Translations under genes and position numbers: made by a program
Part shown: positions 3,983 through 30,460 of the stretch, piece after piece
Layout: the number at the start of each line of letters is the position of its first letter
Numbering within the stretch: position 1 is the first letter of the stretch
The notes under the pieces: generated by a model
Database searches by the model: none
What the model was told of the DNA's origin: nothing
Seen by the model: only the letters and a program-made list of their open reading frames with translations
Source of the DNA: a bacterium
GTDB lineage: Bacteria > UBA10199 > DSSB01
Length of the DNA stretch: 64,000 nt
Assembly: GCA_046346845.1 (NCBI GenBank)
Contig: JAXMHH010000002.1
Span: 426,747 to 490,746 of the forward strand
Direction of reading: 5' to 3'

Positions 3983-6900
3983 ATGACGCTGCGCGACCTG
4001 CTGCGCGGGGATTCCTCCCTGCCTGTCTTCCGTTCCTCCCCCTTGCCCGGACTGCCTCGCGAGTCGGCCCCGCCCCAGGCCTTTTCCTCCGCCGCCGTGC
4101 TGGCCCGCCTCCTCGAGGGAGGGGCCGAGCCCGGCAACCTCAGCCAAAGACTGGAAGTTCAAGGGGGCGAGCTGCGCGCCGCCTGGAACGGTCTCGCCGC
4201 AAGCCAGCGCCAGGCGATCGAGCGTCGCTTCAGCCGTCCTGTTTTGGAGGAGTTGTTTTCCCTTTCGCGGGGTTGCGATGCCGAGGGACTGGCCGAGGCC
4301 CTGCTGAGCATCGGGGCGGTCCAAGAGCGACAGGGGCGGATCGAATCGGCGGCGGAGCTCTACCAGGCGGTGCTGAGCCTGCGCGGATCGGGTGCGGGGT
4401 TAAATCCCGTTTGCGACCGGGCCGAGCGGCGTCTCAACGCGGTCTTGGGTCGGGGCGACGCCCTGCCGCGCGCGGAATTCCTGTTGCGCCGCCTGGCCAG
4501 CGAGGCCACCGAACCGACCGCCCTGCTGGGCATGGCGGCCGCGGGCTTCGCCTTCCGGTTGACGCGTTTGGCGACGCTCTCCCGCTTGGCGGCGAGTCCC
4601 ACGGCGAATTTTTTGACGCGCGGACTCGGCGCTCGAGCGGTGGCCTCGCTGGCGGGATTTGGGGTCGAGGCGACCGTCTTTCCCTATGCAGGACGCCTGG
4701 CCAACGCGGCCCTGGGTCGGCATCAGGATTGGAGCGCCCGGGCCCAGTTCCGCGACTTGGCAGGCAGCTTCCTAACCCTGGGCGGTTTGAGGGTCATGGG
4801 CTGGGCCGCGGGCGCCGGCTTCAACCGGCTCCATGGTATCGACCCGCTGACCGGCCAGGCGACACGCTTGGCGGGATTCAGCGCGATTTCCCAACGCCTC
4901 GTGCCCCAAGTGGGCATGTTCGGCGGCATCCTGCTCGGCCATCATTTGGAAGAACGCTTCGGGTTGCGGGAGCACCACGACAGCGCCACCACGATGGTGG
5001 ATTCCCTCGCGATGCTGCTCCAGTTCAACGTCGCCGGCGCCCTGCAGCGCCATGCCTTCGGCGCGCGGGTCCACGCCTGGGAACAAAGCCTGGACCTGCA
5101 GGCGGAGGGTTTGGCCCGCGGCATTTCCGGTCGTGGGACCCCGGAGGCCCGGCGTCCCTTGTTCAACTTAACGGAATCTTTGGGCGGCCTCCAACCCGCG
5201 CTGGCGACGGCTGGCGTGGCGGGAGAACCCGCCGGTCGGCCCTCGCGCGGCCCCCTCGAGGGGCCGCAGCTCGTCTTCATGGAGGGATTGGGCGAGGGCG
5301 GCGGCGCAAATTCGGGCGGAACCGAATCGGCACCGGCGCGGGAATCCCTGCCCAGCCGCGGCGAGCCCCGCCGCATTGACCCCAATGAGACCTTGGCGGT
5401 GTTGCCAATGGGTGCCCTGACCCCGCATGGCAACGAGCGGAGCACCCACGCGCGGGCGGTCGGCGACCTGCGCTGGCTGGCCGAGGTCGGCGTGATGAAC
5501 GGTCACCTCGAGTATCGCGGCGACGGCGTCTATGCGGACAAGGCGAGCGGCGAGGTTTTGGACTTCGACCAGATCGAGTCCCGCTACGGTGAGGCGATCC
5601 GCAGCGGCAGCGGGTTTCGCGAATTGACCAGCAGCCTGCCGATCGAGACGCCCTGGGGCGGCCAGATTCCGGCGGGGCTGCGCGGCGAGGACGGCAAGAT
5701 CGAGGCCCGGCTCCTCGAGGTGATGGGGCTCACTCCCAGCCGCGTCAAACAACTGAGCTTCAATCAGAGCACCACGCTGATCACCAAGGCCGACCAGTTC
5801 GCCCTGCAGGGGCTCTACGCCCTGTTCCGCTCCGGCGTTCGTTGGGGCGCGCGGCTCGATGAGATCGTCGGCCGCGACCCGGAGGGCCTGGGCATCAGCG
5901 CCGCTCCCGGCCTGGGCGGGATGAACCACTTGGTCCATCTGTTCCTGGCGTCCGCGCGGCGCAAAAGCCCGGACAGCACCCGCACGGACCCGGCGACCAT
6001 GCCGATGTGGCTGCCCAGCACCTTGGCGGATTCCATGCAGGGCGTCCTCGTCGCAGTCCTGGGCCCCAAGTACGAGAACACCAGCATCGGTCCCAACCCC
6101 GTCGACGTGGGCGCCTGCGCGACCGGCTACAAGGCCTTCGCCCAGGCCGCCGACATGTTCCGCCCCCAATGGCCGGGCGGCGGCAACGTGGAGCTCGCGA
6201 TCTTCGGGTCCTCGGAAGCGCCGCATGGCCAGCCCCACGCCCGCGTCTCCGCCACCGGCTTCAACGCGATGGGCGCGATGGAGACCCTGGAGCGGCTCGG
6301 CAAACGCCTCGGCCTGCAGCCCAGCGAATTCCGCCAGGCGATGGACCACCTCGAGCGGCACTACGCCCCGATGACCGAGGACGTTTACGGCTTCTGGCCC
6401 TCCGAGGGCGCTGGCGCCGGCGGCCTGATGCGACTGGCGCGGGCCATCGAGCTGGGCCTGCCGGTTTCTTCCACGGTGGCGGGTTATGCGATGCGCGGCG
6501 ACCAGGGCGGCAAAAAGAATCCCGCCGACATCGGTTACGGTGGCCGGAATGCCCTGCGCACCGCCCTGCGCATGGCCGAAGCTTGGCAGGGGATCAACCC
6601 GGCCCACTTGGATTACTTCAGCGGACATCTCACCGGGACCCCGACCAACAACGCGGCCGAGTCCGCGCTCTTCGCCGAGGTCCTGCCGGCCGAGACGCGG
6701 ATGCGGCTCTCCGCCTACAAGGCCTTTTTGGGTCACGGACTGGGCGCGGCGGGGACGATGGAGATCGCCCTGCTGCAGGCCTCGCTGGAAAGACAGTTGG
6801 GTCCCGGCGCCTTCAACGTCGAGGGCCGCACCTTGGCCCAGGCCTTTCTCGACTTGCACCCGCGGGTGCAGGTCAGCGCCGACTTGGTCCGCGACATCCG

Positions 6901-9417: not shown

Positions 9418-11484
9418 ATGGCGGGCACCTTTTTCCCAAAAACCGCGCTGCGCGGGCCGCAACGGCTCGAGTGGGAGGCGCTGCAAGGCGAATCCGACCC
9501 GCAGCTCTACGCCTCGGGGCTGCTGGGCTTCGCTCAACGCCAGGGACAAATGGGGCAGCTCGAGCTGGCGGCCGAGGTCCTTCGGCACTTGGAAGCGACG
9601 GGTCCCGAGCCGCTGCGCGGTCGCGTGCGGCGGGAACTGGAGGCCATGCTAGGGCAGGGGACCTTCGGCCCCCGGGCGGAATTTTTGCTGCGGAATCTGG
9701 CGCAACAGGCCAGCGAGCCCAGCTCCCTTCTGGCCATGGGTGCGGCGGGGACCGTCTTTCGTATGACGCGGCTCTTGACGCTTTCTCGCCTTTGCCAAGC
9801 GGATTCCCTGGGGTGGATGACGTGCCTGCTGGGGGCCGGTCGCCTGGCGACGCTGGCCGGCTTCGCGGCCGAGGCCCCGGCCTTCGTCCTGGCGGGCCGT
9901 TTGGGGGGCGAGGTCCTGGGGCGTCGCCAGGACTGGAGTTTCCGGGCCCTGGCCGGCGAATTTGCCTCCAGCTACCTGCTCTTGGGGGCCCTCAAATTAG
10001 GAACCGGGTTCGGCGCCGGAGTCGCCCGCGCCTTGCCGGATGGGCCCTGGCGCGGGCTGCTGCGCCAGGGCGGGACCTTGGCCGGCATCGCGCTGGGGCG
10101 TCGCTTGGAGGCGTCCTGGGGCCCGCATCCCCAGCCCGGCGGCGCCACCGAGCTGACCGACTCCCTGGCCCTGCTCCTGCAATTCCAGGTGGCCGCGGGA
10201 TTGGGTCGAGGGCTGTTCGGAAACAAGCTCCACGCCTGGGAACGCGCCTTCGACCTTCAGGCCGCGGCCCTGAACCCCGCTGGGGGCTGGTCCGCCGGTC
10301 CCCAAGCGATCCCCGCCGGGGCTGGGGGGGAAGGCCAGGGATTGCCGGGACGAAGGGTCGAGCCGAGATTCCTCGGGCACTTCATGCAGATGTCGGGAGA
10401 GGGGGGAAGTGGCGGGGCCGGAAAAAAGGCCGGCGCGGTGGACTCTCCGGGATGGAGCGGCCGCCTGGGCTCGGTCCTGGCAAAACTGCCGGAGTGGTTC
10501 CGAGGGAATCGATCCCCGCCGGTCCCGGCGGACGAACCTGCCGAAACCGCCCCTTACCGTCGTCAGCCCTATCATTTTGCCACGCCGGCCGCGGCGCGGG
10601 CCCATGGCGAGGGGCTGTGGCAGCTGGTGCTGGACCCCAACCAAGCCCCGGAGCTGCGCCTGACGGGTTTGGCGGAGGTCGAGGCTTATTACGAAGGACT
10701 GCGGCGCGCGGCTTGGGATTATCAGGGGAATCTCCGCCAGGGACTGCAGCGGCTCCAAGGTTTGATCCGCGACCCCGGGGTTCGCTACCTCGAACCCGAG
10801 GGTTGGCCGGAAATCCTGTTGCAGCGGGAGATCCCCCTGCCGAAATCGGTGGCGGATTTTTATCGCAGCGACCTGCTGATCCGCGGCCGAGCCGCCGAGC
10901 TCTTCGCCGACCTGCATCGCCGGCCTCCGGTTTCGACACCCCTCCTCAAAAACGGCGTGGTCTTCCTCGAATCGGCCGTTCGCCAGCCGGGACTTTCCAC
11001 CAAGTTTCGCACCTATTGGCGGCCGGATGTCTGGTCCCGCGCCTATTTCGCCGCCGAGGCCCAGGCCCGGCAGGCCCTGTTTCGAGCCTACGCCCGATTG
11101 TTGCCGCAGCTGCCAGTGGGGAGCGTGGAGGCGGTGCAGGGATTTCGACTGCTCACCGAGGAGCCGCTCCTGGCGATGGCGCGCGGCGAGGGGCCCTTGC
11201 CGGATTACCTCAGCGACCCGGCTTGGGTCGTGGAGCTGCTCAGCGCCCAAGCGGAATTGCTGCGCCTGCTTCCGCTCCGCCACCCCGAGGTGCAGCGGGC
11301 GGATCGCATTTTGAGCCCCTTGCTGCAGAGCCTGGGAGAGCGGGCCCAGGAGGGTGATCCGGCGGCGATCGAGGCCCTGGGGCGTTTTGCGGTCTCGGAC
11401 GGCAGCGCGGTGGCCCTCTTGCAGGATTTGGCGGAGCGGGGCAACCCCATCGCCCGAAACCTGCTTGCGAAGGGGCGACCCTGA
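9418..11484 (+). CDS. Array member 2: module plus unknown helical cargo
   Basis: ESDPQLYASGLLGFAQRQ...GPRAEFLLRNLAQQASEPSSLLAMG...DSLALLLQF; the C-terminal region is HEAT-like and resembles member 4. Confidence 0.8.
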   Translation: MAGTFFPKTALRGPQRLEWEALQGESDPQLYASGLLGFAQRQGQMGQLELAAEVLRHLEATGPEPLRGRVRRELEAMLGQGTFGPRAEFLLRNLAQQASEPSSLLAMGAAGTVFRMTRLLTLSRLCQADSLGWMTCLLGAGRLATLAGFAAEAPAFVLAGRLGGEVLGRRQDWSFRALAGEFASSYLLLGALKLGTGFGAGVARALPDGPWRGLLRQGGTLAGIALGRRLEASWGPHPQPGGATELTDSLALLLQFQVAAGLGRGLFGNKLHAWERAFDLQAAALNPAGGWSAGPQAIPAGAGGEGQGLPGRRVEPRFLGHFMQMSGEGGSGGAGKKAGAVDSPGWSGRLGSVLAKLPEWFRGNRSPPVPADEPAETAPYRRQPYHFATPAAARAHGEGLWQLVLDPNQAPELRLTGLAEVEAYYEGLRRAAWDYQGNLRQGLQRLQGLIRDPGVRYLEPEGWPEILLQREIPLPKSVADFYRSDLLIRGRAAELFADLHRRPPVSTPLLKNGVVFLESAVRQPGLSTKFRTYWRPDVWSRAYFAAEAQARQALFRAYARLLPQLPVGSVEAVQGFRLLTEEPLLAMARGEGPLPDYLSDPAWVVELLSAQAELLRLLPLRHPEVQRADRILSPLLQSLGERAQEGDPAAIEALGRFAVSDGSAVALLQDLAERGNPIARNLLAKGRP

Positions 11485-11525: not shown

Positions 11526-14333
11526 ATGGAAATTTCGGCTCAAGGTTGGCCGCTCCCGCTGCGCCAGGAATGGGACTCGCTGGCGCGCGAGTCGGACCCC
11601 GACCTCTACGCGGAGGGGCTGCTGGATTTCGCCCGCCGCCAGGAGCGGGCCGGGCGCCTGGAGCTCGCCGTGGAGCTCTACCGCCGCCTGGCCGACGCGC
11701 CCGACCTGGCCCCCGCCCTGCGGCAGCGCGCCCGCCAGGGCCTGGATGCCATCCTGGGTCGGGGTGACTTCGGTCCCCGAGCGGAGTTCTTGCTGCGAAC
11801 CTTGGCCCAGCAGGCCAGCGAGCCCAGCGCCCTCCTCGCGATGGGTGCCGCCGGTGCGGCCTTTCGCCTGACGCGCCTGGCGGCGCTCTCCCGCTTGGCG
11901 GCGTCCCCGCGTCCTTGGTGCTTGGCACGGCTGGTCGGCGCGGGGCGGCTGGCCTCGATCGCGGGTTTTGCGGTGGAGGCGCCGACCTTCACCCTGGTCG
12001 GCCGCCTGGGGCACGAGGCCTTGGGGCGCGAGCAGGATTGGAGCGCCCGGGGCTTTGGCCGCGATTTGGCCTCGAGCTACCTCACCCTCGGTGGGCTGAG
12101 GTTGGTCGGGGGTCTGGCGACGCGGTGGGGCCGAGGCCAGGCTCCGGTCTTGCGCGGCCTCCTGCAAGAGGGCGGGATGCTCAGCGGCATCCTCCTCGGT
12201 CATCGCCTGGAGGAGTGGGCGGGTCTGCGGGAACGCCCCAGCGGGGCGACCACCCTGGTGGATTCCTTGGCCCTGCTGCTGCAGTTCCACGTGGCCGGAG
12301 GCCTGAGCCGCGCCGCCTTCGGGCCGCGCTGGGCCGCTTGGGAGCGGGGGCTCGACCTGCAAGGCGAGGCCCTGGGGCAGACACTGGAAGCCCCGCGGCG
12401 CCTCGCGGCCGCGCCAGCGCCGGCGGGTGCGGCCAGGATCGAGCTTCCCACCGTGTTCATGACCCAGGGAGGAAACGAGGGGGGCAACGGGAACCACGAG
12501 GGGCGGGGCGGGCGCCCGCGCAGCAATCGGCCGACCTTGGCGGGAATGGCCCCGGGGCCCAAGTCCAGCGCCCCCACCGCCCCGCCGGCGCCGCCCTATG
12601 CCGAGGAGTCGCCGTTTCCATTGGCCGACTTGGCGCCGGGCACCCGCCTGGTCCGCGCCGGCAGCACCCTGTCGGCCTCTACCAATACCATGGCGCATCT
12701 CCTCGAGGCCCTGGAGATCTACTTCCGGCATTACCGCGATCCGGTGGTCCTGCGGGTCGATGGCCGGGTGAGCCTGGACGTTCGTCAACTTGGGGTATTG
12801 CGGGTTGAGCTGCATCGCCTGTTTCGGGAGCACGGGGTCCCCGAGGGGACTCGGGTTTCCCTCCTCTTGCCGGCCGAGCAGGAGGTTTGGCATTTCCAAA
12901 AAGGGGGCCTGACCTTTGAGGCGAGGCGGGAGTCGTTGGTTGCCGCCGACCGCAAGTCGACCTTGCCCGCGCCACCGCCGGCCATCCCCACGCCGCCGCC
13001 TCGGCCCAGCGCCTCCATCCCCACCCCGGTCCCCTTTCGCGCGGACAGCCTGGTGGTGGAGGACTTCGAGGGCGTGAAACAGGCCTTTCGTCGCCTGATG
13101 GCGGGGCTGGATACGGAAGTCCTGCTCAGCCCCGCGGTTCGCCTCAACCGGGGCCGCGTCGAGGAAAAGGGCCTGCAGGCCCTGGCCGACATCTTGAGCG
13201 AGCACCCCCTGCCGGAGGGCCGGAAGATCTCCGTCTTTTGGGTAGAGGGCGGGGGAGGGACTTTGAGCTTCCAGCGCCAGGGGGAGCTCGTCCGCGCGGA
13301 TTGGAAGGCCTATAAGATTCCGCCGGAGACCTATTGGTTGGTGCCGGTGGCCTCCCGCCTGGGACAGATGCAGGTCTATCGCGCCTCGGCGCTGCCGAGC
13401 TATCCCGGGGAGGGATACCGCGGCTACGAGGTCGCGATGGAGGCGGAGACCAAGGCCTTGTTTTCGCGCCTCGCCCACCCGGGGGTTTGGGAGCAATGGG
13501 TGGGACGGGAAGAGGGAGCGGCCCGCCGGGGGGAAGGCTGGGCCCGACTCGCCTCGCATTGGCTCAAGGAGAACGCGAGTCCAGGGAAGACCCTGAGCCC
13601 CGCAGCCCAGGAGACTTTCTTAAGCCTCCACCGCATGCTGGAGCGCTCCCAGGCCTACCTCGACTTGGGGGCCTTGCAGCGCTTCCGTGATCGGCTCGGC
13701 GCGGCCAAGCTGCGGGAATACGATGAGCAGGTCGCGCGCTTCAACCGAGGCCGCCTCACGGCGGGTCTCGAGCAATTGATCCCGCTCGGCGAATTCGGTT
13801 CGCGGCAGCTCGGGGATTATGTGGTCCCGCTCAGCGATCACCTGCGGGCGGTATTCTGCGAACAGCTCTTCAAGAGCCGCGGCGGGTCGCGGATTCCGCT
13901 CGAAAACAACGCCCTGCTGCGCGATCCGCTTCGGCTCGGCGCTTTGTTTCGCGAGACCCTGCGCGTCCGCGCCCTGCCCCTCTTGGCCATCCACAAGATG
14001 ATCCAGCTCCAGGGCCTGGGCGAGACACCCGGCAGCCTGCTCACCCGCAGGCGCGAGGAGCTTGGCGATCACAGTCGGAAGCTGAGGGACGATTTCGAAT
14101 TCTTTCTCGCCGAATGGCCGGAGTTTGGCCGAATCCTGAGGGGTGGTGCCGGGTCCTTCCATCGCACCCTGCTCGCCGAGGTCTTCGAGGGGCCGCAATC
14201 GGTCCGCGATCTCTACCAGCAGGTCCTGAAGGTGCTGACGGCCTTGCCGCCGGCGGAGCGGCGCTCCCGGCTCCTCGACACCCTGCCCGAGTGGGCGGAG
14301 CTGGGCAACGCCCTGCGCGGGTCTCGGCCCTAG
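11526..14333 (+). CDS. Array member 3: module plus duplicated small alpha/beta unit and helical tail
   Basis: Module 11590-12370; junction LPTVFMTQGG; Pro-rich linkers. Confidence 0.8.
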   Translation: MEISAQGWPLPLRQEWDSLARESDPDLYAEGLLDFARRQERAGRLELAVELYRRLADAPDLAPALRQRARQGLDAILGRGDFGPRAEFLLRTLAQQASEPSALLAMGAAGAAFRLTRLAALSRLAASPRPWCLARLVGAGRLASIAGFAVEAPTFTLVGRLGHEALGREQDWSARGFGRDLASSYLTLGGLRLVGGLATRWGRGQAPVLRGLLQEGGMLSGILLGHRLEEWAGLRERPSGATTLVDSLALLLQFHVAGGLSRAAFGPRWAAWERGLDLQGEALGQTLEAPRRLAAAPAPAGAARIELPTVFMTQGGNEGGNGNHEGRGGRPRSNRPTLAGMAPGPKSSAPTAPPAPPYAEESPFPLADLAPGTRLVRAGSTLSASTNTMAHLLEALEIYFRHYRDPVVLRVDGRVSLDVRQLGVLRVELHRLFREHGVPEGTRVSLLLPAEQEVWHFQKGGLTFEARRESLVAADRKSTLPAPPPAIPTPPPRPSASIPTPVPFRADSLVVEDFEGVKQAFRRLMAGLDTEVLLSPAVRLNRGRVEEKGLQALADILSEHPLPEGRKISVFWVEGGGGTLSFQRQGELVRADWKAYKIPPETYWLVPVASRLGQMQVYRASALPSYPGEGYRGYEVAMEAETKALFSRLAHPGVWEQWVGREEGAARRGEGWARLASHWLKENASPGKTLSPAAQETFLSLHRMLERSQAYLDLGALQRFRDRLGAAKLREYDEQVARFNRGRLTAGLEQLIPLGEFGSRQLGDYVVPLSDHLRAVFCEQLFKSRGGSRIPLENNALLRDPLRLGALFRETLRVRALPLLAIHKMIQLQGLGETPGSLLTRRREELGDHSRKLRDDFEFFLAEWPEFGRILRGGAGSFHRTLLAEVFEGPQSVRDLYQQVLKVLTALPPAERRSRLLDTLPEWAELGNALRGSRP

Positions 14334-14390: not shown

Positions 14391-16445
14391 TTGGGGCACG
14401 GAATGGCCACGGAGCTGGCTGCGCTGCGACCCGCCTTGCAGCGGGAATACCAGGCCATCGCGGCGGAATCCGATCGTCAACTCAAGACAGAAGCGCTGCA
14501 GGGTTTTGCGCGCCGTTTGGAGGCCGAAGGGAGTTTTTCGGCCGCCGCGGAGCTCTATGCCCGCTTGGCCGCTGAGGCCCAATCGCCCGAAGCCAGCCGC
14601 CTTGCCCGGGATGGCCTCGACCGGCTCCGGGGCCGGGGGGGCTTTGGCTCCCGTCTCGAGCTGCAATTCCAACCCTGGATTCGCCAGGCCGCCGACCCGC
14701 GGCTGATCGCGCCGATGCTGGTGGGGGCCTTGGCCTTTCAGTTGGGGCGCGCCGTGGTCCTGGGCCGCCTCAGTTCGCTCGCGGAGGCCTCCTGGCTGAC
14801 CCGCGGCGCGGGCGCCCGAGCCGCAGCCGGGCTGGCGGGCTTCGCGGCGGAGGTCCCGAGCTTTGTGGCCGCCCAGCGGGCCCTGATGCCGGAACCGGCG
14901 GAGCTCGCCACTGATCTGCGGAACGCCGCCCTTGCCTTGGGGGCCATGAAGTTGTTCGCCGCCACGGGAAGGTGGAGTGTGCAGTCTTTTCCAGGCTTGC
15001 AGGGTAGGATGGCGACGGCCCATCTGGCGGGAATAAATCGCCTTAGCCACGTCGTGATCCCCGAGGTCGGAGCCCTCCTGGGACTGATGGCCACGCATCG
15101 CCTGGAGACGACCTTTGGCTGGCGGCCCGCCGTCGATCCGGGCATGGATTTCGCCGACAGCTTGCTAACCTTGTTCAGCCTGAGGATGGGGGAGGGCTTG
15201 GGCCGGCTGGCGCTGGGACCGGGCTTCGCCGCCTTTCGCGCCGAGCTGGGCCTTCGGGGGGAATTCGCGGCGTCGGGGAGGGCGAGCGGCGGCTATTCCT
15301 CCCTTGGGCAGCCGGCGTGGGCCGGGACGAATGCCCCGACCAGGACCTTGGGTGTCTTGGCGGAAAGGCCGACCTTACTGATGATGTCAGGCCGGGACGA
15401 CGGAACGGGGAGACGAGGTCCCCTCCAGAATAGCGCCGCGGGAACTCCTTACCGGGAAGGGGGAGGTTCTCCAGCTCCGGAGAATGCGATCCAGGTGGCC
15501 AAGGAATTGCGGCAGGCGATTCGGGATGGGGATATTCCTCCCGCCGAGCGTTTGCAGTACCTGGAGACCCTCGCCAGGATTCTCCCAAACTTCGGGACGG
15601 GGGAGGCGGCGGTAGCCGGCTTGAAGGACTTGGAGAGGATCCTGCGGAAACCGAAGGTGAGTTACGAGCTGCCGCGCCAGGTCCCCTCGCAGGTCACCCC
15701 CTATTACGGCTACGATTGTTTACTGCGAAGCCAGGCCGCCGAATTATCCCTCAAGGTTTTAGCGAATTTTCCGAGGGGCGCCCGGGAGCGGGAGCGGTTC
15801 GCGGCCGCCTTGCGAGAGACGATTCTCGAACCCCAGATTCCGACCCGGTTCCTGGCCCCGTCCAAAAACCCGGAATGGGGGCGCTACTATGCCGAGGCCG
15901 AATCCCATCTGCGCCGGACCTTGTTCCCGTATTATCCGCAGGCCCTCCGGGACTTGCCGACGGAGGCCTACGAAGTGGCGGAGGGCCTGAAGTTTTTGAG
16001 CTCTCCCGCCGTGAGCGGGCTCTATGAGGACCCCGCGGATCCCAGGGCCGCGCAGAGCGCCCAAGAGGCGGCGCTGGCCTATGCGGCCCTGCTCGCGGCC
16101 TCTTCTCCCTATCAGCGCAACTTTCGCGCCGCGGAACTAGCGGCCTTGAGCCCCTTGCTGGCATCGCTCGCCGGGCCTGCCGCGGCGGGGGATGAAGCGG
16201 CCCTGCGGGCCCTGGCCGAGGCAGGGCCGGGCGATCCGCGCGCGATCGAACTCCTCACCCGCCTCCGGCTGGAGGCACGCGATCCCCACCGCAAAGAAAC
16301 GATCCACCAAATCATGGCAGCGGCCCAGGAGCTCCAGGAAATCCGCCATCAGGAAATCGTGGAGAAGTACCTCGCCCGTGATCCGCAAAAGCGGGGCCTG
16401 CTTTACTGGCTTGAAAAATTGATCCGAATTCGGGGTTACGATTAG
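14391..16445 (+). CDS. Array member 4: divergent module plus helical cargo (alternative start ATG 14403)
   Basis: ESDRQLKTEALQGFARR...FGSRLE...DSLLTLFSL; junction PTLLMMSG; cargo aligns with member 2. Confidence 0.78.
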   Translation: MGHGMATELAALRPALQREYQAIAAESDRQLKTEALQGFARRLEAEGSFSAAAELYARLAAEAQSPEASRLARDGLDRLRGRGGFGSRLELQFQPWIRQAADPRLIAPMLVGALAFQLGRAVVLGRLSSLAEASWLTRGAGARAAAGLAGFAAEVPSFVAAQRALMPEPAELATDLRNAALALGAMKLFAATGRWSVQSFPGLQGRMATAHLAGINRLSHVVIPEVGALLGLMATHRLETTFGWRPAVDPGMDFADSLLTLFSLRMGEGLGRLALGPGFAAFRAELGLRGEFAASGRASGGYSSLGQPAWAGTNAPTRTLGVLAERPTLLMMSGRDDGTGRRGPLQNSAAGTPYREGGGSPAPENAIQVAKELRQAIRDGDIPPAERLQYLETLARILPNFGTGEAAVAGLKDLERILRKPKVSYELPRQVPSQVTPYYGYDCLLRSQAAELSLKVLANFPRGARERERFAAALRETILEPQIPTRFLAPSKNPEWGRYYAEAESHLRRTLFPYYPQALRDLPTEAYEVAEGLKFLSSPAVSGLYEDPADPRAAQSAQEAALAYAALLAASSPYQRNFRAAELAALSPLLASLAGPAAAGDEAALRALAEAGPGDPRAIELLTRLRLEARDPHRKETIHQIMAAAQELQEIRHQEIVEKYLARDPQKRGLLYWLEKLIRIRGYD

Positions 16446-17969: not shown

Positions 17970-20471
17970 ATGTTTCCTACCCTAGTTGCCTCTGAAGGCG
18001 GGCTTACCCGTGCCTTGCCGGAGGCCCGTGTCGCCATCGCCCCCGCGATTCTAGCTAGAATTTTCGACCGTCGCCTCTTTCCGCAGGCCGATTCCGGCCC
18101 GGTGGAACAGGCCCTGGGCCGCACCGCGGAGCTGCGAGCGGCCCTCGCCGAGCTCCCTGCGGCCCAAAGCCTGGCCTTGCGGGCGAGCTTTGGAGAGGCG
18201 GCGCTCAGCGAATTGCTCAGCCTGGCCGGGGAATCCGATCCGGCCCTGTTGCACGAAGCCCTGCTGAGCTTTGCGGGCCGGCAGGAGACCTCCGGACGGG
18301 TCGAGATTGCCGCCGAGCTCTACCAGAGCGTCGTGGCGAATGCCGGGGCCGGCTCCGCCTTGGGCCGAAGGGCCCAGGCGAGGCTCGATGCCATCCTCGG
18401 CCGGGGCTCGGTTGCCTTGCGCGGCGAATACCTGCTCCGCAACCTCGCGCAGCAGGCCTGCGAGCCCAGCTCCCTGCTGGCGATGGGGGCGGCAGGCACG
18501 ATTTTTCGCGCGACGCGCCTCTTGGCCCTCAGCCGTTTGGCAGCGAGCCCCACGGCCAATTTCCTGACGCGGGGTTTCGGGGCCAGTGCCCTGGCGGGTT
18601 TGGCCGGTTTCGCGGTCGAGGCGCCCGCCTTCACCCTGAGCGGCCGGCTGGCGGCGGAGGCCCTGGGGCGCAGCCAAGATTGGAGCGGGGAGGCCCTGCG
18701 CCGGGACCTGCTCTCCAGCTACCTGGTCCTGGGGGGCTTAAGGGCGGCGGGCTTTGCGGGTGCCGGGCTGTACCGGCGCTTCGGCGGCTCCAGCGAATTC
18801 GCCCGAGGCCTCTTCGCCCAGGGCAGCATGCTGACCGGGATCCTGGGCGCCCATTGGCTCGAGACGCGCTTTGGCCTGCGTCCCGCCACCGACCGCGCCA
18901 ACACCCTGGTTGATTCCCTGGCGACCTTGCTGCAATTCAACGTCGCCGCCCGCTTGAGCCACCAGGCCTTCGGGCCCCGCGTGGCGGCCTGGGAGGCCGC
19001 CTTGGACGCCCAGACCCAGCTGGTTGCCGCAACCAATTTCCGCGCCTCCGGACCCCGGGGTCCGGGCCTCAGCCCGGCCTACGCGGTGGCGGGCGGCCGC
19101 GCCCCCGAGGCGCTCCGCGAACCGGAAGATCCGCTCGGCCGGGGTCTGCAAGTCCTCATGTCCAAGATGCACGACGGTAAGGGCAATCCCGGGCCGACCG
19201 GACGCCGCCTGGCCCCCGGGGAGGTCGGCGAGGGGGGCGTAGATCCCAGTCAGTTAGATAGGCAGATCTCCACCTTGCTACTCTCGGCCGGCGATAACCT
19301 CGAACGCGGCCTGCGCACCTTTATCGACGGCCTCCCCGTGGCCACCGCCGTGGCCCGCCTGGAACGCGGCAATAAAGACATGGGCCGCATCTTCATGGTG
19401 AATCGGAGGTTTCAGGAGCTGTTCGGCTACACCGAGCGAGAAATCGGCGAGCTTCCCCTCATCAAGTTTTACCACCCCCTCAAGAGCGCCTTTGTGCTGT
19501 CGCAGATCTGGAACATCTTCCGTAACGGAATCTTCCGCCCCAGCGATATGGAACTGAGGCATCGGGATGAGGGTTGGGTCAAGGTCCGCGGCAGCGGCGT
19601 GGTGAAAGACCTGGGCGACCACTCCATCGCCTTCGGATTTTTGGAAAACCGCGCCGAGGCCAATGAGGGACGGCAAAGCCAGATCCTGGCCGCCTTCGAA
19701 GAGTCGAAGCGACCCCAAGCGATCCGCACTGCAGCCGACGGACATGTCGAGGTGGGATCGGTCATCGAACTCAGCTCCCTCTTGACCCAAGATAATTCGG
19801 CCTTGCTGCGGCAGATCGTGGACCAGGATGTCCGCATCCGCATCACGAATATGCCTTGGGTCCAGGCCTCCGACGGCTATGCCGAGCCCTTGGCCCGTTT
19901 TTTCAATGTCCAAGACCGGAAATTCTCATTCCCCGTCGGACGGAGGGTGTCGGTGGAGTTCCCACCCTCCGAGTCCAATGGCCGGGCGCGCACGATCATT
20001 CCCTTGGTGAAATTCGATTCTGGATTTCGCGCCATCGGATTCGGAGGGCCCGAGGCCAATCCGTCGGGAAATCCGGCGGGGACGGAGCTGCCCACCGCCC
20101 TCCCCCGGACCTCGCCTTCCCTGGCGGCGCCCGCCTTCGACAAGCCGCCGAGTCCCATTCCTCCGGCGGTCGTCGACGCCACCACCGCCGAGCTCTTAAC
20201 CAGGCTGCAAAGCCAAATGGGGGCCGCGGTCTTGGGCGCCCGCGAGGCCCTTTCGCAGCAGGATGCGGAGGTGACGGTGGCCGGGGAGTTTCCCGCCGCC
20301 TTTTTGAACCAAAACCTCGAGTCGATCCAGGGCGAGCTCCAGGCCATCACCGAAAAGCGGGTGCCCATCACCTTAGGGCGCCAGGTGACGCTGCGCTTTC
20401 ACACCGACCGGGGTCCCCTCACCTTGGTTTTTCGTAAAGTATTACGCAGGTTTGAGCGGGTGGACGGCTAG
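17970..20471 (+). CDS. Array member 5: module plus PAS domain plus alpha/beta units
   Basis: SD gaaagga. Module 18232-19020. PAS at ~19307-19657 (FIDGLPVA...VNRRFQELFGYTEREI...ELRHRDEGWVKV). Confidence 0.82.
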   Translation: MFPTLVASEGGLTRALPEARVAIAPAILARIFDRRLFPQADSGPVEQALGRTAELRAALAELPAAQSLALRASFGEAALSELLSLAGESDPALLHEALLSFAGRQETSGRVEIAAELYQSVVANAGAGSALGRRAQARLDAILGRGSVALRGEYLLRNLAQQACEPSSLLAMGAAGTIFRATRLLALSRLAASPTANFLTRGFGASALAGLAGFAVEAPAFTLSGRLAAEALGRSQDWSGEALRRDLLSSYLVLGGLRAAGFAGAGLYRRFGGSSEFARGLFAQGSMLTGILGAHWLETRFGLRPATDRANTLVDSLATLLQFNVAARLSHQAFGPRVAAWEAALDAQTQLVAATNFRASGPRGPGLSPAYAVAGGRAPEALREPEDPLGRGLQVLMSKMHDGKGNPGPTGRRLAPGEVGEGGVDPSQLDRQISTLLLSAGDNLERGLRTFIDGLPVATAVARLERGNKDMGRIFMVNRRFQELFGYTEREIGELPLIKFYHPLKSAFVLSQIWNIFRNGIFRPSDMELRHRDEGWVKVRGSGVVKDLGDHSIAFGFLENRAEANEGRQSQILAAFEESKRPQAIRTAADGHVEVGSVIELSSLLTQDNSALLRQIVDQDVRIRITNMPWVQASDGYAEPLARFFNVQDRKFSFPVGRRVSVEFPPSESNGRARTIIPLVKFDSGFRAIGFGGPEANPSGNPAGTELPTALPRTSPSLAAPAFDKPPSPIPPAVVDATTAELLTRLQSQMGAAVLGAREALSQQDAEVTVAGEFPAAFLNQNLESIQGELQAITEKRVPITLGRQVTLRFHTDRGPLTLVFRKVLRRFERVDG

Positions 20472-20569: not shown

Positions 20570-22375
20570 GTGTCCGACTTGATTCTCGATCGCCTTCGCC
20601 CAGGGTTCCCGCGGGAACCCGCGCCGTCCTTCGCCTTTCAGCCCCGTGAAAGCGCGGGCTGGACCCCTGCGCTCCGCCGCGAGTTGGCTGTCCTGGCCGC
20701 GGAGAGCGACCCGCAGCTCTACGCCGAAGGGCTGCTCAACCTCGCGCAGCGCCTGGAAGCGGGGGAGCACCCCGAGGCCGCGCCGGAGCTTTATCAGGCC
20801 CTGTTGGAATCCCCCGTTCCCGGCATTTCCGCTCGGGCTCGAACCCGACTCGACGCCCTACTGGGGCGCGGAGCCGTCGGTCCGCGCCTGGAATTCCTGC
20901 TGCGCCGCCTGACGCAAGCAGCGACGGAACCCAGCGCCTTGTTCGCGATGGGCGCGGCCGGGGCGGTCTTCCGGATGACGCGTTTATGGGCGCTCTCGCG
21001 GCTGGTCTCCGCGGGCGAGACCGGTCTGATGACGCGGCTTCTGGGCCCGGGCCGGATCGCCAGCCTGGCGGGCTTTGCGGCGGAGGCGCCCGCCTTTACC
21101 CTGGCCAACCGACTGGGCCACGCGGCCCTGGGCCGGTCGCAAGACTGGGGCGGGTCGGCCCTGGCGAGGGAGTTCGCTTCCAGTTTTTTGGTCTTGGGCG
21201 CCTTGAAATTATCCGGTTCCGCCGCGGCTTGGTTGGGGGCCGGGCAGGCGGCGAGCCTGCGGATGGTGCTCCGGCAGGGCGGGATGTTGACTGGGATCCT
21301 GCTGAGCCATCGCCTGGAAGAGCTGGCGGGCCTCCGGCCCAGCCAGCCCGGTGCGACCCGCTTGGCCGATTCCCTGGCGCTCTTGCTGCAATTCCAAATG
21401 GCCGGTCGTCTGGTGGAGGCCGGCCTGGGGCGCCCGGGGAGCGCGGCCGAGGCGCACCTGGAGGCCATGGCATTGACCCCGCGGCCGAGTCTTCCTCCGC
21501 CCCTGGCGCTGTCCCTGGGCGCGGAACCGGCCCTGGCGAGCGCGGCGGGCCCAAGCCGTTCCGGCAGCCCGGCAGCGCCCCGCTTGTCGGCGGGCGTCTT
21601 CGCCATGGCGGCCGGCAAACCCTTGGGCGGGCATGGCGGGAGCACCGCTCGCAAGAGCCCGGGTGAATTGGTCGAGGAACATCTTCAGACGCTGAGCGAG
21701 GTACCGCCCGCCGATGCGGAGGCTGCGCCGCCCGCCATCGAGTTCCGTTTCGAGGGCGTGACCCTCACTCCTTCCGCCGAGCTCCGGCAGAGATTTTTCT
21801 GCGAAACCCTGCAGCGCCTCTTGAGCAAGGGGGAATCCGGATTTCCCTACCCCCTGCGCGGCGAACTCAGCCAGGCGCTGCGTTCCAATGCGGACCTGCG
21901 AGCCTCTCTTCCTGCGCTGGGTGAGGGGACGGAGCGCCGCTGGGTCGCGGACATCGCCGCCAAGGGCCATGAGCTGCGCCACCTGCTCCTCCTGGAATCG
22001 GAAGGAGGCGGTCCGTGGCGGCCCCGGCGGCTTTTGCTCGGGGCGCAGATCCTGCGCTACGACGAGAGCCAGGATCCGGCGGTCTACGACCTGGAATTCG
22101 GTCGCGGCGAGGCCCCGGAGATCCGGGGACGGATCTTTCGCCCCGACCTCCACGAGAGGTGGAACCCCGACGGCTACCTCAGCCGGAGTTTCTCCCCGGT
22201 GGGAGACGGCGACCTGAGGTGGGAACTCTATCCGAAAAGCTCCTACCTCCTCCGGCTTGAAATGGCGGTGGAGCCTCAGCTCCGCCTGCAGGTGTTGGAA
22301 TTGAGCGGGCATCGCCTCTTCTCGTTGGGCCCTTGGGCCCGGGCCGGCAACGGCAAGGGGAGGCAGGGGCCATGA
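20570..22375 (+). CDS. Array member 6: module plus unknown beta-rich cargo
   Basis: GTG start; module 20703-21470; junction GVFAMAAG; stop overlaps the next ATG (ATGA). Confidence 0.8.
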   Translation: MSDLILDRLRPGFPREPAPSFAFQPRESAGWTPALRRELAVLAAESDPQLYAEGLLNLAQRLEAGEHPEAAPELYQALLESPVPGISARARTRLDALLGRGAVGPRLEFLLRRLTQAATEPSALFAMGAAGAVFRMTRLWALSRLVSAGETGLMTRLLGPGRIASLAGFAAEAPAFTLANRLGHAALGRSQDWGGSALAREFASSFLVLGALKLSGSAAAWLGAGQAASLRMVLRQGGMLTGILLSHRLEELAGLRPSQPGATRLADSLALLLQFQMAGRLVEAGLGRPGSAAEAHLEAMALTPRPSLPPPLALSLGAEPALASAAGPSRSGSPAAPRLSAGVFAMAAGKPLGGHGGSTARKSPGELVEEHLQTLSEVPPADAEAAPPAIEFRFEGVTLTPSAELRQRFFCETLQRLLSKGESGFPYPLRGELSQALRSNADLRASLPALGEGTERRWVADIAAKGHELRHLLLLESEGGGPWRPRRLLLGAQILRYDESQDPAVYDLEFGRGEAPEIRGRIFRPDLHERWNPDGYLSRSFSPVGDGDLRWELYPKSSYLLRLEMAVEPQLRLQVLELSGHRLFSLGPWARAGNGKGRQGP

Positions 22376-24786
22376 CCTTTTTTCCCCACCTGCCGTCCCG
22401 ACCCCCCGCGGTACCCAGGGAGGCCTATCCCTCGCTGCCGGACACCGCCCTGCGGCAACTTCCGGAGCCGCTGCGAGGGGAACTCCTCGCCCTGCCGGCG
22501 GAACGGGACCCGGAACTCTACGCCGAGGCCCTCTATCATTTCGCCCAACGGCAGGAGCGGGTGGGCCGCCTCCCCTTGGCGGTGGAGCTCTATCAAGTCC
22601 TGCTCGCCGGGCCGGCCAGCGCCTACCGAAATCGCGCCCAACTCGCCCTCGACGCGATCCTGGGGCGCGGCGCCTTTGGAGCCCGGGCGGAGTTCTTGAT
22701 GCGAAATTTCGCCGAGCAGGCCAGCGACCCCAGCGCCCTGCTCGCGATGGGCGTAGCCGGGGCGGTGTTTCGCATGACGCGCCTGGCGGCGCTCGCGCGC
22801 TTGACCGGCTCGGTTCGGCCGGGACTGATGACGCAGTTCCTCGGGGCGGGCCGGCTCGCCTCGCTGGCGGGCTTTGCGGTGGAGGCACCGACCTTTACCT
22901 TGGTCCACCGTTTTGGCGATGCGGCCTTGGGTCGGTCCCAGGACCGAAGCGGGGAGGACCTGGCTAGGGAGCTGGCCTCGAGCTATTTGACCTTGGGCGG
23001 GCTCCGGCTCGCGGGTGCCGGCGCGGTGTTGCTGGCAGAGGGGCAGGCGGTTCCCCTGCGGCATCTGCTCCACCAGGGCGGGATGCTCACCGGCATCCTC
23101 CTCGGTCATCGCCTGGAGGAGTGGGCGGGTCTGCGGCCGCGGCAGGCGGGCGCCACGACCTTGGTGGATTCCCTGGCCCTACTGCTCCAATTCCACGTGG
23201 CGGGCCGCCTGAGCCGTGCGGCCTTCGGGCATGACTTCGCCGCCTGGGAGGCGGGGCTCGATCGGCAGGCCGAGCTTATGACACGCCCTCCGCCGGGTTC
23301 CGGCCCCCGCCCCATCCCGATTCCGAATCCTGCCCGGCGCTTGGCTTGGGCCAGTGGCGGTGCCGAGGTTCCGGTCCCCGTCGGCCCTACCGTGCTGATG
23401 ATGTCCGGCAGGGGGCGCGACGGCGGAGACGATTGGCGCGCAGGTCTATTTCGGGCCTCCAATTTGCGGCTTCGGATCAGTCCGGCCGATGCCTACCAGC
23501 GGCGGGCGGATAATGCGGCGGACTACGTCAAGCAGGTTCAGGAGCTGACGCCGGGACATGCGGGGGTCATGACCGAGATCCTGATGGGGCTCGACCTGTT
23601 CGGGTCTTGGCTGGAGGGCGGCGATCCCTTTCGCCGGGCCATCGGCTTTCGGCACCACGCCGAGCTGTGGCGGGTCTTGGCGAACAAGTGGACCCATGTT
23701 TCCCTCACGGTCTCCCTGACCGAGGCCTTTCGCGACCAGATCCGGCGCCAAATCCGGCTCCTGGCCCAGGGCTCCAACCAGCGCTTCCTCGCCGCGACCC
23801 TGGAGGGGGCGCCCGAGATCTCCCGCATCTACAGCCATACCCTGGGCGCCTTGGTGGAAGGCTCGCCGCGGGAACGCGAGTTGACCCAAACCCTCTTGGA
23901 TCTGCTGGCCGCCCTGCGCGGCGGGGCCTTGGCCCCCAACCCTTCTGTCCAGCGAGGGCTTTGGCTGGAGGCCTTCCACGCGAGCTTGAATTACGCGGCC
24001 AATGAGCGGCTCGGGTTCGCCCGGGAGGCCCTGCGCGGGATCCAGGGGACTCGGGCCTGGCTCGGCAGCGCCGACCCCGAGCGGCAACTCTTGGGACGCC
24101 GCTACTTCCCGCTGTTTTGGAACCGGCTGGCGGAGCGGGGTCATCCCGAACAAAAAGACCCCTTCCTCTCCGAGGTCCAAGAGGAAGTCGCCTTTCTGCA
24201 GCAGAGCACTTCGCCGCAACGGGTCCCGAAGGAGACCTTGTTGGCCGCCTTGCAGGCCTACCCCCACTACGCGGAATGGGTCTTCAACCTCCTGGGCGAT
24301 CACCCCCTGCAGGGCTACATGCTGCTCAACACCTTCCTTGGCCAGGCCCGCACCCTGCGGCCCTGGATCTCCGGCCACAGCGATGCGGAGGTCCGCGAGA
24401 CTTGCGCGGCTTCTTATTTAAGGGTTCTTTCCCGGTTGAATCGACAGGCAGAAGCGCTTCGCGACTTTCCTAACCTGCCGACCCCCATCGGCAGCGATAT
24501 CGTCGCCGAGGCCTGGGAGGGGATCCCGGTCTTTGAGCAGCGTTGGCAGGGCGCCCCGGGGCCGGATGCCATGATCTCGGCCCTCCGCGACTATCTGCAA
24601 CTGCTCGACCTCTTGCCGCCGGAGGCCCGGTTTGGTCGCGAGCTCAGCGCCGAGTCGCGCTTGAAACCCCTGGTCCGGCTCAGTATGCATCAAAATCCCA
24701 CGCTTCGGCGCCTTGCCGAAGATGCGATGGAAAAGATTCTGACGAAATTCCCCTCGGGACCGACCGAACCCTCGGGAGGCAACTGA
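22372..24786 (+). CDS. Array member 7: module plus helical cargo
   Basis: ATG 22372 overlaps the previous TGA; module 22500-23275; junction GPTVLMMSG. Confidence 0.8.
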   Translation: MTFFPHLPSRPPAVPREAYPSLPDTALRQLPEPLRGELLALPAERDPELYAEALYHFAQRQERVGRLPLAVELYQVLLAGPASAYRNRAQLALDAILGRGAFGARAEFLMRNFAEQASDPSALLAMGVAGAVFRMTRLAALARLTGSVRPGLMTQFLGAGRLASLAGFAVEAPTFTLVHRFGDAALGRSQDRSGEDLARELASSYLTLGGLRLAGAGAVLLAEGQAVPLRHLLHQGGMLTGILLGHRLEEWAGLRPRQAGATTLVDSLALLLQFHVAGRLSRAAFGHDFAAWEAGLDRQAELMTRPPPGSGPRPIPIPNPARRLAWASGGAEVPVPVGPTVLMMSGRGRDGGDDWRAGLFRASNLRLRISPADAYQRRADNAADYVKQVQELTPGHAGVMTEILMGLDLFGSWLEGGDPFRRAIGFRHHAELWRVLANKWTHVSLTVSLTEAFRDQIRRQIRLLAQGSNQRFLAATLEGAPEISRIYSHTLGALVEGSPRERELTQTLLDLLAALRGGALAPNPSVQRGLWLEAFHASLNYAANERLGFAREALRGIQGTRAWLGSADPERQLLGRRYFPLFWNRLAERGHPEQKDPFLSEVQEEVAFLQQSTSPQRVPKETLLAALQAYPHYAEWVFNLLGDHPLQGYMLLNTFLGQARTLRPWISGHSDAEVRETCAASYLRVLSRLNRQAEALRDFPNLPTPIGSDIVAEAWEGIPVFEQRWQGAPGPDAMISALRDYLQLLDLLPPEARFGRELSAESRLKPLVRLSMHQNPTLRRLAEDAMEKILTKFPSGPTEPSGGN

Positions 24787-24860
24787 GGCGGTTTTTCGAC
24801 GATACCTCGACGATCTCAATGCGTCATTGTGGAGCGGGGGGCCCTCCCAGGAGCCGAGCA

Positions 24861-27448: not shown

Positions 27449-28147
27449 ATGTTTTCCGTCCGCAGGGCCGAAGAGCGGGGCCACTTCGATCACGGCTGGC
27501 TCAACACCTATCACACCTTTTCCTTCGGCGATTATTTCGATCCCCATTTTATGGGCTTCCGCGACCTGCGGGTGATCAACGAGGACTATGTCCAACCCGG
27601 CAAGGGTTTTCCCACCCATCCCCACCGCGACATGGAGATCCTCACCTACGTCTTGGCCGGGGCCCTCGAGCACCGGGACAGCATGAGCAATGGCTCCGTC
27701 ATCAAGCCCGGCGAGGTCCAAAGGATGAGCGCGGGCACCGGCGTGACCCACAGCGAGTACAACGCCTCGACGGAGGACCTCGTCCACCTCTTGCAGATCT
27801 GGATACTGCCCAAGGCCAGGGGCCAGGTCCCCAGCTACGAGCAGAAGCAGTTCCTGCCCGAGCAAAAAAAGGGAAAGTGGCTGTTGGTGGCCTCGCCGAA
27901 TGGCGTCCAGGGCTCGGTGACCATCCATCAGGACGTCTATGTCCATGCCAGCCTGGTGGCGCCCAACGAGGAGCTCTTCTACCAGGTGAGGCCCGGTCGC
28001 CATGTCTGGGTGCAGGTGGCCCGCGGCGAGATCCAATTGAACGGCGAGCCCCTGAAGGCCGGGGATGGGGCGGCGTTGAGCGAGGTGGCGACCGTGGACG
28101 TGCAGGGGAAGCGGGACGCCGAGGTCCTGCTCTTCGAGTTGGCCTAG
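27449..28147 (+). CDS. yhhW: Pirin family protein
   Basis: [47 protein letters not shown]. Confidence 0.92.
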
Positions 28148-29238
28148 ACGTTGAAGCGGAAATGCATGATGTCGCCGTCGCGGACGACGTAGTCCTTGCC
28201 CTCGAGGCGCAGCAGCCCCGCCTCTTTCACCGCCTGTTCCGACTTGTATTTCATGAGATCGTCGAAGTGATAGACCTCGGCGCGGATGAAGCCCTTTTCG
28301 AAGTCGCTGTGGATCACGCCGGCGGCCTGCGGTGCCTTCGCGCCCGTGGGGATAGTCCAGGCCCGGACCTCTTTTTCTCCGGCGGTGAAATAGGTCGAGA
28401 GATGCAGGAGCTTGTATCCGGCGCGGGCCATCCGGTCCAATCCGGATTCGTGCAGTCCCAAGTCTTCCAAGAAGGCCTTCTGTTCCGCCTCGGGGAGGTT
28501 GGAAATCTCGGCCTCGATGGCGCCGGAGAGCACGACGCAGGGCGCGCCTTCGCGCTCGGCGTGGGCGATGACTTTTTGCGCGGCCGGCCCTGGGTTGGCG
28601 GCCTCCGCCTCGTTGACGTTGGCCACGTACATGACGGGCTTGGCGGTCAGGAGGAAGAGCTCGCGCAGCGCCTCATTCTCTTTGTCGCTCAAGGCTATGC
28701 GGCGCACCGGAACGCCCTCGTTCAGGCCCGCTTGGACCTTCTTCAAGGCCTCCACCTCGGCGATCAGGTCTTTGTCGCCGCTCTTCGCGGCCTTGGCGCT
28801 GCGCTCCAGCCGCTTTTCGACGGTGGCGAGGTCGGCGAGCATCAGCTCGGTATCGATCACCTCGATGTCGCGGATCGGGTCGACGCTGCCCTCGACGTGG
28901 ACGACGTCGGGGTCCTCGAAACAACGCACGATGTGGGCGATGGCGTCGGTGTTCTTGATGTTGCCCAAAAATTGGTTGCCGAGCCCCTCGCCCTTGGAGG
29001 CCCCCTTCACCAGGCCGGCGATGTCGACGAACTCGACCGTGGTGGGGACCAGCTTTTGCGGCGGGATGTACTGGGCGATGCGCTGCAGGCGCTCGTCGGG
29101 GAGGGGCACGATGCCGACGTTCGGGTCGATGGTGCAGAAGGGATAATTCGCCGCCTGCGCCCCCGCGTGAGTCAGGGCGTTGAAGATGGTGGATTTGCCG
29201 ACGTTGGGGAGGCCGACGATGCCGCAGTTGAAGCCCAT
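28144..29238 (-). CDS. ychF: Redox-regulated ATPase YchF
   Basis: [46 protein letters not shown]-like tail [13 protein letters not shown]. Confidence 0.97.
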
Positions 29239-30323: not shown

Positions 30324-30460
30324 GCCAATGGGCTCGCGAAATTAGGTCGTTGGCCCGCCGGGATCGGCGGAGTTTACGGCGGGGGCCATATCCAGTAGGA
30401 TGGGCCCGCCGTTACCGTCCACAGGCGCTATCGAGCGCACGGAGGCTTGTCAAGGGAAGC

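Follow-up and report, generated by a model that had tools for sequence, protein, structure and literature searches.

In the 64,000-nucleotide stretch of bacterial DNA analysed here (the window), eight co-oriented genes, with starts at 3983, 9418, 11526, 14403, 17970, 20570, 22372 and 24543, share an N-terminal helical module that is joined to a variable C-terminal part, the cargo. The junction between module and cargo carries two short motifs, and these are a real boundary marker that acts at the protein level: a pair of short linear motifs in a tether predicted to be disordered. We tentatively read the pair, at somewhat below even confidence, as the site where a shared factor would release the cargo by site-specific proteolysis. 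The genes are referred to as members A to H, and a distant relative of the module in the window is member I (gene 37999-44205). Member A (3983-9337, + strand) is a 1784-residue protein whose module occupies residues 83-373, and the span examined in it, the region 5190-5300, has the in-frame translation LQPALATAGVAGEPAGRPSRGPLEGPQLVFMEGLGEGG.

Form and enrichment of the junction motifs

Motif 1 has the form [R/Q]-P-A-[L/W/Y]-A-x-A/G and lies about 20 residues past the module. Motif 2 has the form P-x-[VLFI]-[LAF]-M-[MSAT] and is followed by about 10-25 residues rich in Gly, Asp and Glu. The preliminary description of this stretch had listed eight ATG codons for the Met of motif 2 (5279, 10390, 12459, 15381, 19158, 21605, 23398 and 40135), and all of them were in-frame Met codons in the peptide contexts that it quoted. 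Member H (24543-27377) was missing from that list, which is consistent with the absence of motif 2 from its sequence. In the cargo group of member H, motif 1 carries a Met (P.LAMA or PSYAMAS), and the place of motif 2 is taken by a conserved DR[LF][YF]S followed by PE[VI][RQ]..L.GR.[RK]P[VI]D.

The enrichment of the motif was measured in the 71 paralogues of the genome with a complete module end, using the 120 residues after the module. A hydrophobic-hydrophobic-Met core was present in 55 of these 71 linkers. When the linkers were shuffled 1000 times, it occurred in 12.5 ± 3.1 of them (at most 22), and of 65 equally long windows taken from the cargos only 9 contained it. The enrichment claimed from the window, which had been set as a test beforehand, therefore held in the larger paralogue set. 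Both motifs were also recovered de novo when, as the preliminary description had proposed, the linkers were searched genome-wide, here by Gibbs sampling. A blind run on the 71 segments returned [M/A/L/F]-M-[S/A/M]-x-x-G-x-G with 11.1 bits compared to 8.7 bits for shuffled segments (Met in 50/71, median position 43), and an independent run returned P-A-[L/W]-A with 10.6 bits at a median position of 20. A further blind search for motif 1 gave 9.8 versus 7.5-7.7 bits, with P in 29, A in 33, L/W/Y in 36 and A in 39 of 48 sequences.

A logo of 48 sequences anchored on the Met of motif 2 showed Pro at -5 to -3, V/L/F/I at -2, L/A/F/M at -1 and M/S/A/T directly after the Met. Gly peaked at +8 and +9 (26/48 and 20/48), and it made up 26% of the 11 residues following the Met in 132 sequences. 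The spacing was fairly constant, with 45.8 ± 8.6 residues from the module end to the Met and 26.2 ± 6.3 residues from motif 1 to the Met. The whole tether, from the module end to the end of the Gly-rich stretch, measures roughly 60-100 residues. The matrix of motif 2 detected motif 1 above chance (p = 0.011) with a weak resemblance, which weakly supports the idea that motif 1 may be motif 2 in a degenerate form. As a possible third motif, PP[ST] following the Gly-rich stretch was considered and rejected, as it occurs in only 20 of the 132 sequences and is a subgroup feature.

Conservation and family specificity

Motif 2 was found in 94 of 120 database homologues from other metagenomes and in 76 of 112 further representatives clustered at 50% identity, and variant forms (LQLQM, LQLEM, VMMMQG, ILQMS and IYLSEMGG) were found in other, distant genera. 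The observation that the motif survives inside otherwise unalignable linkers was confirmed within groups of orthologues with the same cargo, where the core was kept while the linker drifted and changed its length. The retained core was F[AM]MS.SG+G in the MBL group, Q[VI]xMS and G+Q+..MS in the PAS group, and P..LMM.G.xGEG in one further group. A position weight matrix gave only 3 matches in 2.6 million residues of open reading frames (ORFs) outside the family, where shuffles gave 0-2. Of these matches, one falls in a divergent member, which an iterated hidden Markov model (HMM) recognised. Since the motif is practically absent outside the family and kept in homologues, it belongs to the family and travels with the module.

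In BLASTP comparisons among 48 members, the alignment ends clustered at 0-30 residues past the Met, most often at +10 to +20. Because they stop just past the Met, motif 2 and the Gly-rich stretch form the distal edge of the sequence that the paralogues share. This agrees with the boundary proposed in the preliminary description: similarity between paralogues with different cargos crosses the linker and ends shortly after the motif.

Structure of the module and the tether

An AlphaFold2 model of member A based on 61 aligned sequences was all-helical over residues ~30-385, with a predicted local distance difference test score (pLDDT) above 90 and a predicted TM-score of 0.69. The pLDDT fell below 50 at residues 393-416, 419-423 and 429-457, which together span both motifs. 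In the full-length model of member E, the module (residues 20-360) was again above 90, the junction (367-427) was at 35-47, and the PAS-containing cargo was folded. The motifs thus lie in segments with a pLDDT below 50 between well-folded domains, and an exposed chain of this kind suits proteases and peptide-binding domains alike. The two models, the orthologue alignments and the logo together give the junction the features of short linear motifs: a core of 4-8 residues retained amid drift, variable flanks with Pro and Gly, an unstructured region and two similar copies. We know of no class of short linear motifs to which it corresponds.

Pfam and NCBIfam gave no match on the module in nine members, except a weak TPR match. 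Foldseek found no fold neighbour of the module in the PDB (best E = 0.34, TM-scores 0.08-0.16), and a module profile searched against PDB sequences matched nothing but designed TPR repeats, and these along its initial ~50 positions. A membrane anchor was rejected for the typical module: no 19-residue Kyte-Doolittle window exceeded 1.4 in member A, and the long helices carry 3-7 charges each.

Size, distribution and cargos of the family

The genome (3.31 Mb in 8 contigs, rated 100% complete) contains 76 module paralogues according to an HMM built from the window and searched against six-frame ORFs, and 80 according to the iterated HMM. Their combined length is 292.8 kb, which amounts to 8.8% of the genome DNA. 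The module of member I was too divergent for both models, and the true count is therefore higher. Members are found in arrays and also singly. Two members are split over overlapping frames within the module, C4:118547-126114 (312 aa + 2471 aa) and C4:306180-310557 (218 aa + 1321 aa); the splits probably stem from frameshifts or from errors in the assembly, and the cargo of the first is a biotin carboxylase with a biotinyl domain.

The module was found in metagenome-assembled genomes (MAGs) labelled Deltaproteobacteria or UBA10199. Among 61 sampled genomes of the phylum, it was strongly expanded in the genus of the window and in genome G016, was present in 12-16 copies in other genera belonging to that family, and gave weaker matches in one further genus. 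A scan of 1.84 billion cluster representatives returned 1,246 clusters at E ≤ 0.001, of which 601 reached E ≤ 1e-30.

The cargos identified with Pfam were two ketosynthase (KS) domains in member A and a PAS domain in member E. They also included two Ser/Thr kinases (Pkinase), a phosphofructokinase (PFK), biotin carboxylase with a biotinyl domain (BCCP), sigma-70 region 2 with amine oxidase, PAS with HATPase_c, and HTH with GGDEF. MBL hydrolases and HEAT repeats were found among the homologues, and many cargos had no domain match. The genome encodes two PFKs, at C4:6605-9064 and C1:176764-177663, one of them fused to the module and the other stand-alone. Given the stand-alone enzyme, the module-fused enzymes appear to be additional copies and not the housekeeping ones.

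Proposed cargo release by a shared factor

In the mechanism that we prefer, the junction would serve as a flexible, disordered tether between the constant helical module and the variable cargo, and the two motifs, at fairly fixed distances, would mark the end of the unit that ~80 paralogues share and that has been duplicated among them. The motifs may form a common recognition site to which one shared factor binds. Binding would then lead to site-specific endoproteolysis in the exposed linker, which would free the cargo from the module, so that all members of the family would answer to one processing activity inside the cell. A shared reader is very likely, given that selection keeps the motifs and that they are family-specific. 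Cleavage is favoured because the site is exposed, stands at the exact boundary of module and cargo and is common to very different cargos, and because the closest architectural precedents couple such motifs to cleavage.

These precedents are CdiA and the PE_PGRS proteins. The VENN motif of CdiA is a boundary motif coupled to proteolytic release of the C-terminal part, and it belongs to a folded pretoxin domain, where it packs against helices (PMC9424206). In PE_PGRS proteins, a conserved GRPLI motif lies in the linker that joins the PE domain to the Gly-rich region, and the protease PecA removes the PE domain; the enzyme cargos of the PE family include a phosphoglycerate mutase in PE_PGRS11 and a lipase in LipY (PMC7550000).

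The family described here resembles the PE_PGRS and PE-enzyme proteins in being a huge paralogous family that takes up near a tenth of the genome, with a constant alpha-helical N-terminus, a short motif at a near-fixed distance, Gly-rich sequence and a variable C-terminus that includes ordinary enzymes. However, there is no sequence relation, and Pfam found no PE or PPE domain. The module measures ~270-300 residues compared to ~100 for PE, the motif is hydrophobic-hydrophobic-Met instead of GRPLI, and the Gly stretch has 10-25 residues in place of a long GGA-GGX domain. The organism belongs to the UBA10199 or 'Deltaproteobacteria' MAG group, and WXG100 was absent, in a genome where other ESX components were not searched. 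With VENN of CdiA and DPxGL of Rhs, the junction shares a short conserved peptide at the transition from constant to exchangeable C-terminal sequence. The sequences are unrelated, however, and no delivery apparatus, immunity genes or toxin domains were found with the family; furthermore, VENN is part of a folded pretoxin domain, whereas the linker here is predicted to be disordered.

A partial analogy is also offered by pro-sigma-E and pro-sigma-K of Bacillus sporulation, whose N-terminal extension is removed by a dedicated protease. Those pro-sequences have 20-30 residues and are specific to one protein, not shared by 80 cargos.

Several observations weigh against cleavage. A pair of similar hydrophobic motifs with fixed spacing suits bivalent docking equally well, and to our knowledge the junction motif fits no described protease specificity. 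No candidate protease emerged from synteny or from the comparison of neighbours within 4 kb, and an all-versus-all comparison of the ORFs in this range around the members gave no recurrent small accessory gene or protease. Genome-wide, the only recurrent neighbours were other large paralogous families (sigma-54 kinase-activators and giant ORFs) rather than an accessory factor. Moreover, motif 2 is missing from 16 of the 71 members.

A more far-reaching form of the cleavage reading, which we regard as unlikely, is that the family would constitute a cytoplasmic set of pro-proteins, with ~80 enzymes and regulators fused to a helical holding domain and released together by a single protease that reads the junction. 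With the same low confidence, the cargos held in this way would be kinases, a sigma factor, a diguanylate cyclase, PFK and fatty-acid enzymes. If this were true, it would be a proteolytic master switch over near a tenth of the coding capacity in a little-known candidate phylum. An alternative of comparable novelty would be PE/PPE-like export by an unrecognised secretion route in a bacterium without a known specialised secretion system.

Docking and other explanations

The two motifs may instead be a docking or tethering site in a chain that stays uncut, a reading that we hold to be possible and rather doubtful. As short extended strands, the motifs would attach to a shared partner, which may be an adaptor, scaffold, chaperone or membrane surface, or else the TPR-containing module of the same protein or of another member. 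The cargo would then be held in place or kept inactive, with the Gly-rich stretch as a flexible leash. The likeness between the two motifs fits this arrangement, as both show the pattern P-x-hydrophobic-[A/hydrophobic]-x-small-G, the matrix of motif 2 picks up motif 1 as given above, and many homologues have Met in both copies (PVFAMAS ... NAVLMSS). The constrained spacing from the module and the disordered context are in line with docking as well. Furthermore, a TPR unit, which belongs to a peptide-binding fold class, stands at the start of the module, and rare members have what looks like a membrane hairpin with the motif-like ALMVGG or GFAMT in its second helix. However, the likeness between the motifs is weak and no partner was identified. 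Neither of the two AlphaFold2 models (members A and E) placed a motif on module or cargo, so that binding in cis is unsupported.

It is rather improbable that the motifs lack a function. On that view they would be left over from an ancestral linker, such as a membrane hairpin that has decayed, and recent duplication together with gene conversion among paralogues would have kept them alike. The family does duplicate in tandem, pairwise similarity runs through the linker, some members lack motif 2, and hairpin variants exist. Nevertheless, the core persists across genomes and genera where the flanks have diverged past alignment and changed their length, whereas gene conversion would homogenise core and flanks alike, and residues are kept while their codons differ.

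Slightly less credible is a secreted repertoire like PE/PPE, LXG or the polymorphic toxins, to which we assign a very low likelihood. Here the module would be an export domain and the junction the site at which this carrier is removed, so that this reading partly overlaps with that of cleavage. The layout of helical N-terminus, linker motif, Gly-rich stretch and variable C-terminus, sometimes an enzyme, mirrors that of PE_PGRS and LipY (PMC7550000). The share of the genome taken up by the family and the extra-copy character of the fused enzymes, as seen for PFK, also point in this direction. However, the type VI secretion system (TssC) was absent in 61 of 61 sampled genomes of the phylum and a phage-type contractile sheath in 15 of 15 genomes of the order, and WXG100 was not found in this genome. 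VirB4 was found in 8 of the 61 genomes and is missing from G042, G053 and G016, which hold large module expansions; its occurrence showed no correlation with that of the family. The single VirB4-type ATPase gene of this genome lies at C6:154288-154896 (- strand), and the sporadic distribution indicates that VirB4 is probably part of a mobile or conjugative element. By inspection, the N-termini of the members showed no hydrophobic stretch like a signal peptide. The members of the array are 36-72 bp apart, or their ORFs overlap, and gaps of this size leave no room for immunity genes. The identified cargos contained no toxin domains, with many cargos left without assignment. They are enzymes and regulators of ordinary cytoplasmic types, among them a sigma factor, GGDEF, PFK and the ATPase of a histidine kinase. 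In addition, encapsulin (Linocin_M18) and bacterial microcompartment (BMC) shell domains were absent from this genome, and its one FHIPEP gene is presumably flagellar.

The analogy to VENN and DPxG boundaries drawn in the preliminary description can therefore be kept in part. A conserved peptide at the boundary of constant and variable sequence is present, but no secretion system, immunity genes or toxin-type cargo were found. The family shares the logic of the boundary motif with the polymorphic toxins, and its membership among them is not supported.

The Met of motif 2 had also been proposed as an internal translation start, which would yield module-free cargo from the same gene; the evidence makes this extremely improbable. 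The Met is the most conserved residue, and the residue after it is in most cases Ser, Ala, Thr, Gly or another Met, a pattern shared by many true N-termini; GC content (down to 0.57) and predicted mRNA structure dip around the junction ATG. However, a Shine-Dalgarno (SD) match of at least 4 nt precedes only 17% of the 48 junction ATGs, compared to 21% of random internal Met codons and 38% of crudely called gene starts; the corresponding values for at least 5 nt are 4, 5 and 18%. The mean folding energy of -10.5 kcal/mol is stronger than that of real starts (about -7), and the GC dip is produced by the codons for the hydrophobic residues and Met. Four members have a Leu encoded by CTC, which is not a start codon, in an otherwise intact motif (PLLSENHQG, HIFLSENRG, GIFLSESTK and GLLLSEGHE), and in others the Met is shifted by one residue (ILQMS, VHMSK). 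The conserved upstream Pro and hydrophobic residues would be useless for initiation, and their codons vary. A signal at the DNA level, such as a recombination site, was rejected as well: around the 48 ATGs, from 24 nt upstream to 6 nt downstream, no fixed word is shared beyond what the residues need.

The motif pair is the only conserved feature between the common domain and ~80 cargos and offers the most direct experimental handle on the family. If the preferred reading of cleavage is true, many enzymes and regulators would be controlled through one site; if docking is true, the motifs would point to an unrecognised intracellular scaffold. Either outcome would be the first functional clue to an expansion specific to this lineage within the UBA10199 group, of which next to nothing is known. 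The motif is a variation on a known design principle, in a new and very large family whose module lacks a Pfam model and a PDB neighbour.

Hairpin variants of the junction

A transmembrane-like segment after the module was found in only 3 of the 71 members. At C2:351204-354005, C3:317966-320212, C2:272092-274698 and C5:79554-81098, a pair of hydrophobic segments, together with a short Ser/Gly loop and a basic cluster, stands in place of the usual junction, and in these 3-4 members the region looks like a membrane hairpin, judged by sequence. The first helix ends with AWA-QD, AFA-QD or the lipobox-like LTGC, and the second helix holds the sequence similar to motif 2 mentioned above, followed by the basic cluster. 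The database representative P0217 reads APAES ... IGFAMTRRR. The ends resembling signal peptidase sites suggest, weakly, that the junction may serve as a processing point. For motif 1 in general, a signal peptidase I site (P-A-L-A / x-A-G) was rejected, as member A has no hydrophobic h-region and the pattern is found only in the few hairpin members.

Coordinates and neighbouring genes

The features of the array and its neighbours are listed in Table 1.

Table 1. Positions of the modules, tether and motifs of the array and of neighbouring genes in the window.
Feature	Position	Strand	Basis
N-terminal module, member A (gene 3983-9337), residues 83-373	4229..5101	+	HMM match spans full 268-position model; AlphaFold2 all-alpha
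Predicted disordered linker, member A, with both motifs and Gly-rich stretch	5102..5353	+	pLDDT <50; Gly composition
Motif 1 of A, LQPALATAG	5189..5215	+	Translation; blind motif searches
Motif 2 of A, PQLVFMEG, Met codon 5279-5281	5264..5287	+	Translation; logo
Motif 1 of B (gene 9418-11484), QAIPAGAGG, degenerate	10303..10329	+	
Motif 2 of B, FLGHFMQMSG	10369..10398	+	
Motif 1 of C (gene 11526-14333), AAAPAPAGA, degenerate	12405..12431	+	
Motif 2 of C, LPTVFMTQG	12444..12470	+	
Motif 1 of D (gene 14403-16445), GQPAWAGT	15306..15329	+	
Motif 2 of D, RPTLLMMSG	15366..15392	+	
Motif 1 of E (gene 17970-20471), LSPAYAVAG	19068..19094	+	Inside pLDDT<50 segment 367-427 of full-length model
Motif 2 of E, GLQVLMSK	19143..19166	+	Form Q[VI]xMS retained in 8 orthologues
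Motif 1 of F (gene 20570-22375), AEPALASAAG	21521..21550	+	
Motif 2 of F, SAGVFAMAAG	21587..21616	+	
Motif 1 of G (gene 22372-24786), RRLAWASGG	23335..23361	+	
Motif 2 of G, GPTVLMMSG	23383..23409	+	
Motif 1 of H (ORF 24543-27377), TPSYAMAS; no motif 2	25824..25847	+	
Motif 2-like LTFLGVMGGG, divergent member I (gene 37999-44205)	40117..40146	+	
Pirin	27449-28147	+	Synteny with Pfam-labelled JGI contig
YchF-type GTPase	28144-29238	-	Synteny
Polyprenyl synthase	29304-30323	-	Synteny
Alpha/beta hydrolase	30281-31243	+	Synteny; Hydrolase_4, 1.8e-19

The synteny of the array was conserved in a related metagenome contig (JGI), and the neighbours are the housekeeping genes for Pirin, YchF, polyprenyl synthase and alpha/beta hydrolase. 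The TTG at 22333 that is listed as the start of member G overlaps with the end of member F. GGGGAGG precedes the ATG at 22372 (MTFFPHLP...), which is more likely to be the start of this member, and a similar FFP or TFFP beginning was seen in two other members.

The genome contains 25 sigma-54 activators, including one in the window (32174-37105), and 16 of the 25, with 1,236-1,707 residues, are fused to an N-terminal Ser/Thr kinase, TPR and GAF. These kinase-activators were not enriched near the family, as 5 of 25 lie within 4 kb of a member and about 3 were expected. A family of mutually similar giant ORFs (3,472-5,913 aa) adjoins module genes at C5:158107-168993, C1:299793-317531, C2:508195-520113 and C2:116395-126810, and no Pfam domain was found in the one giant ORF that was scanned. 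ABC-ATPase-like ORFs were seen beside a few members on contig C5.

A gene for a HipA-type kinase lies at 54061-55302 on the minus strand (HipA_C, 4e-56; Couple_hipA, 3e-26). It sits in the only AT-rich stretch of the window, with a GC content of 0.45 at 54-56 kb compared to 0.6-0.7 elsewhere, which suggests an acquired toxin-antitoxin island.

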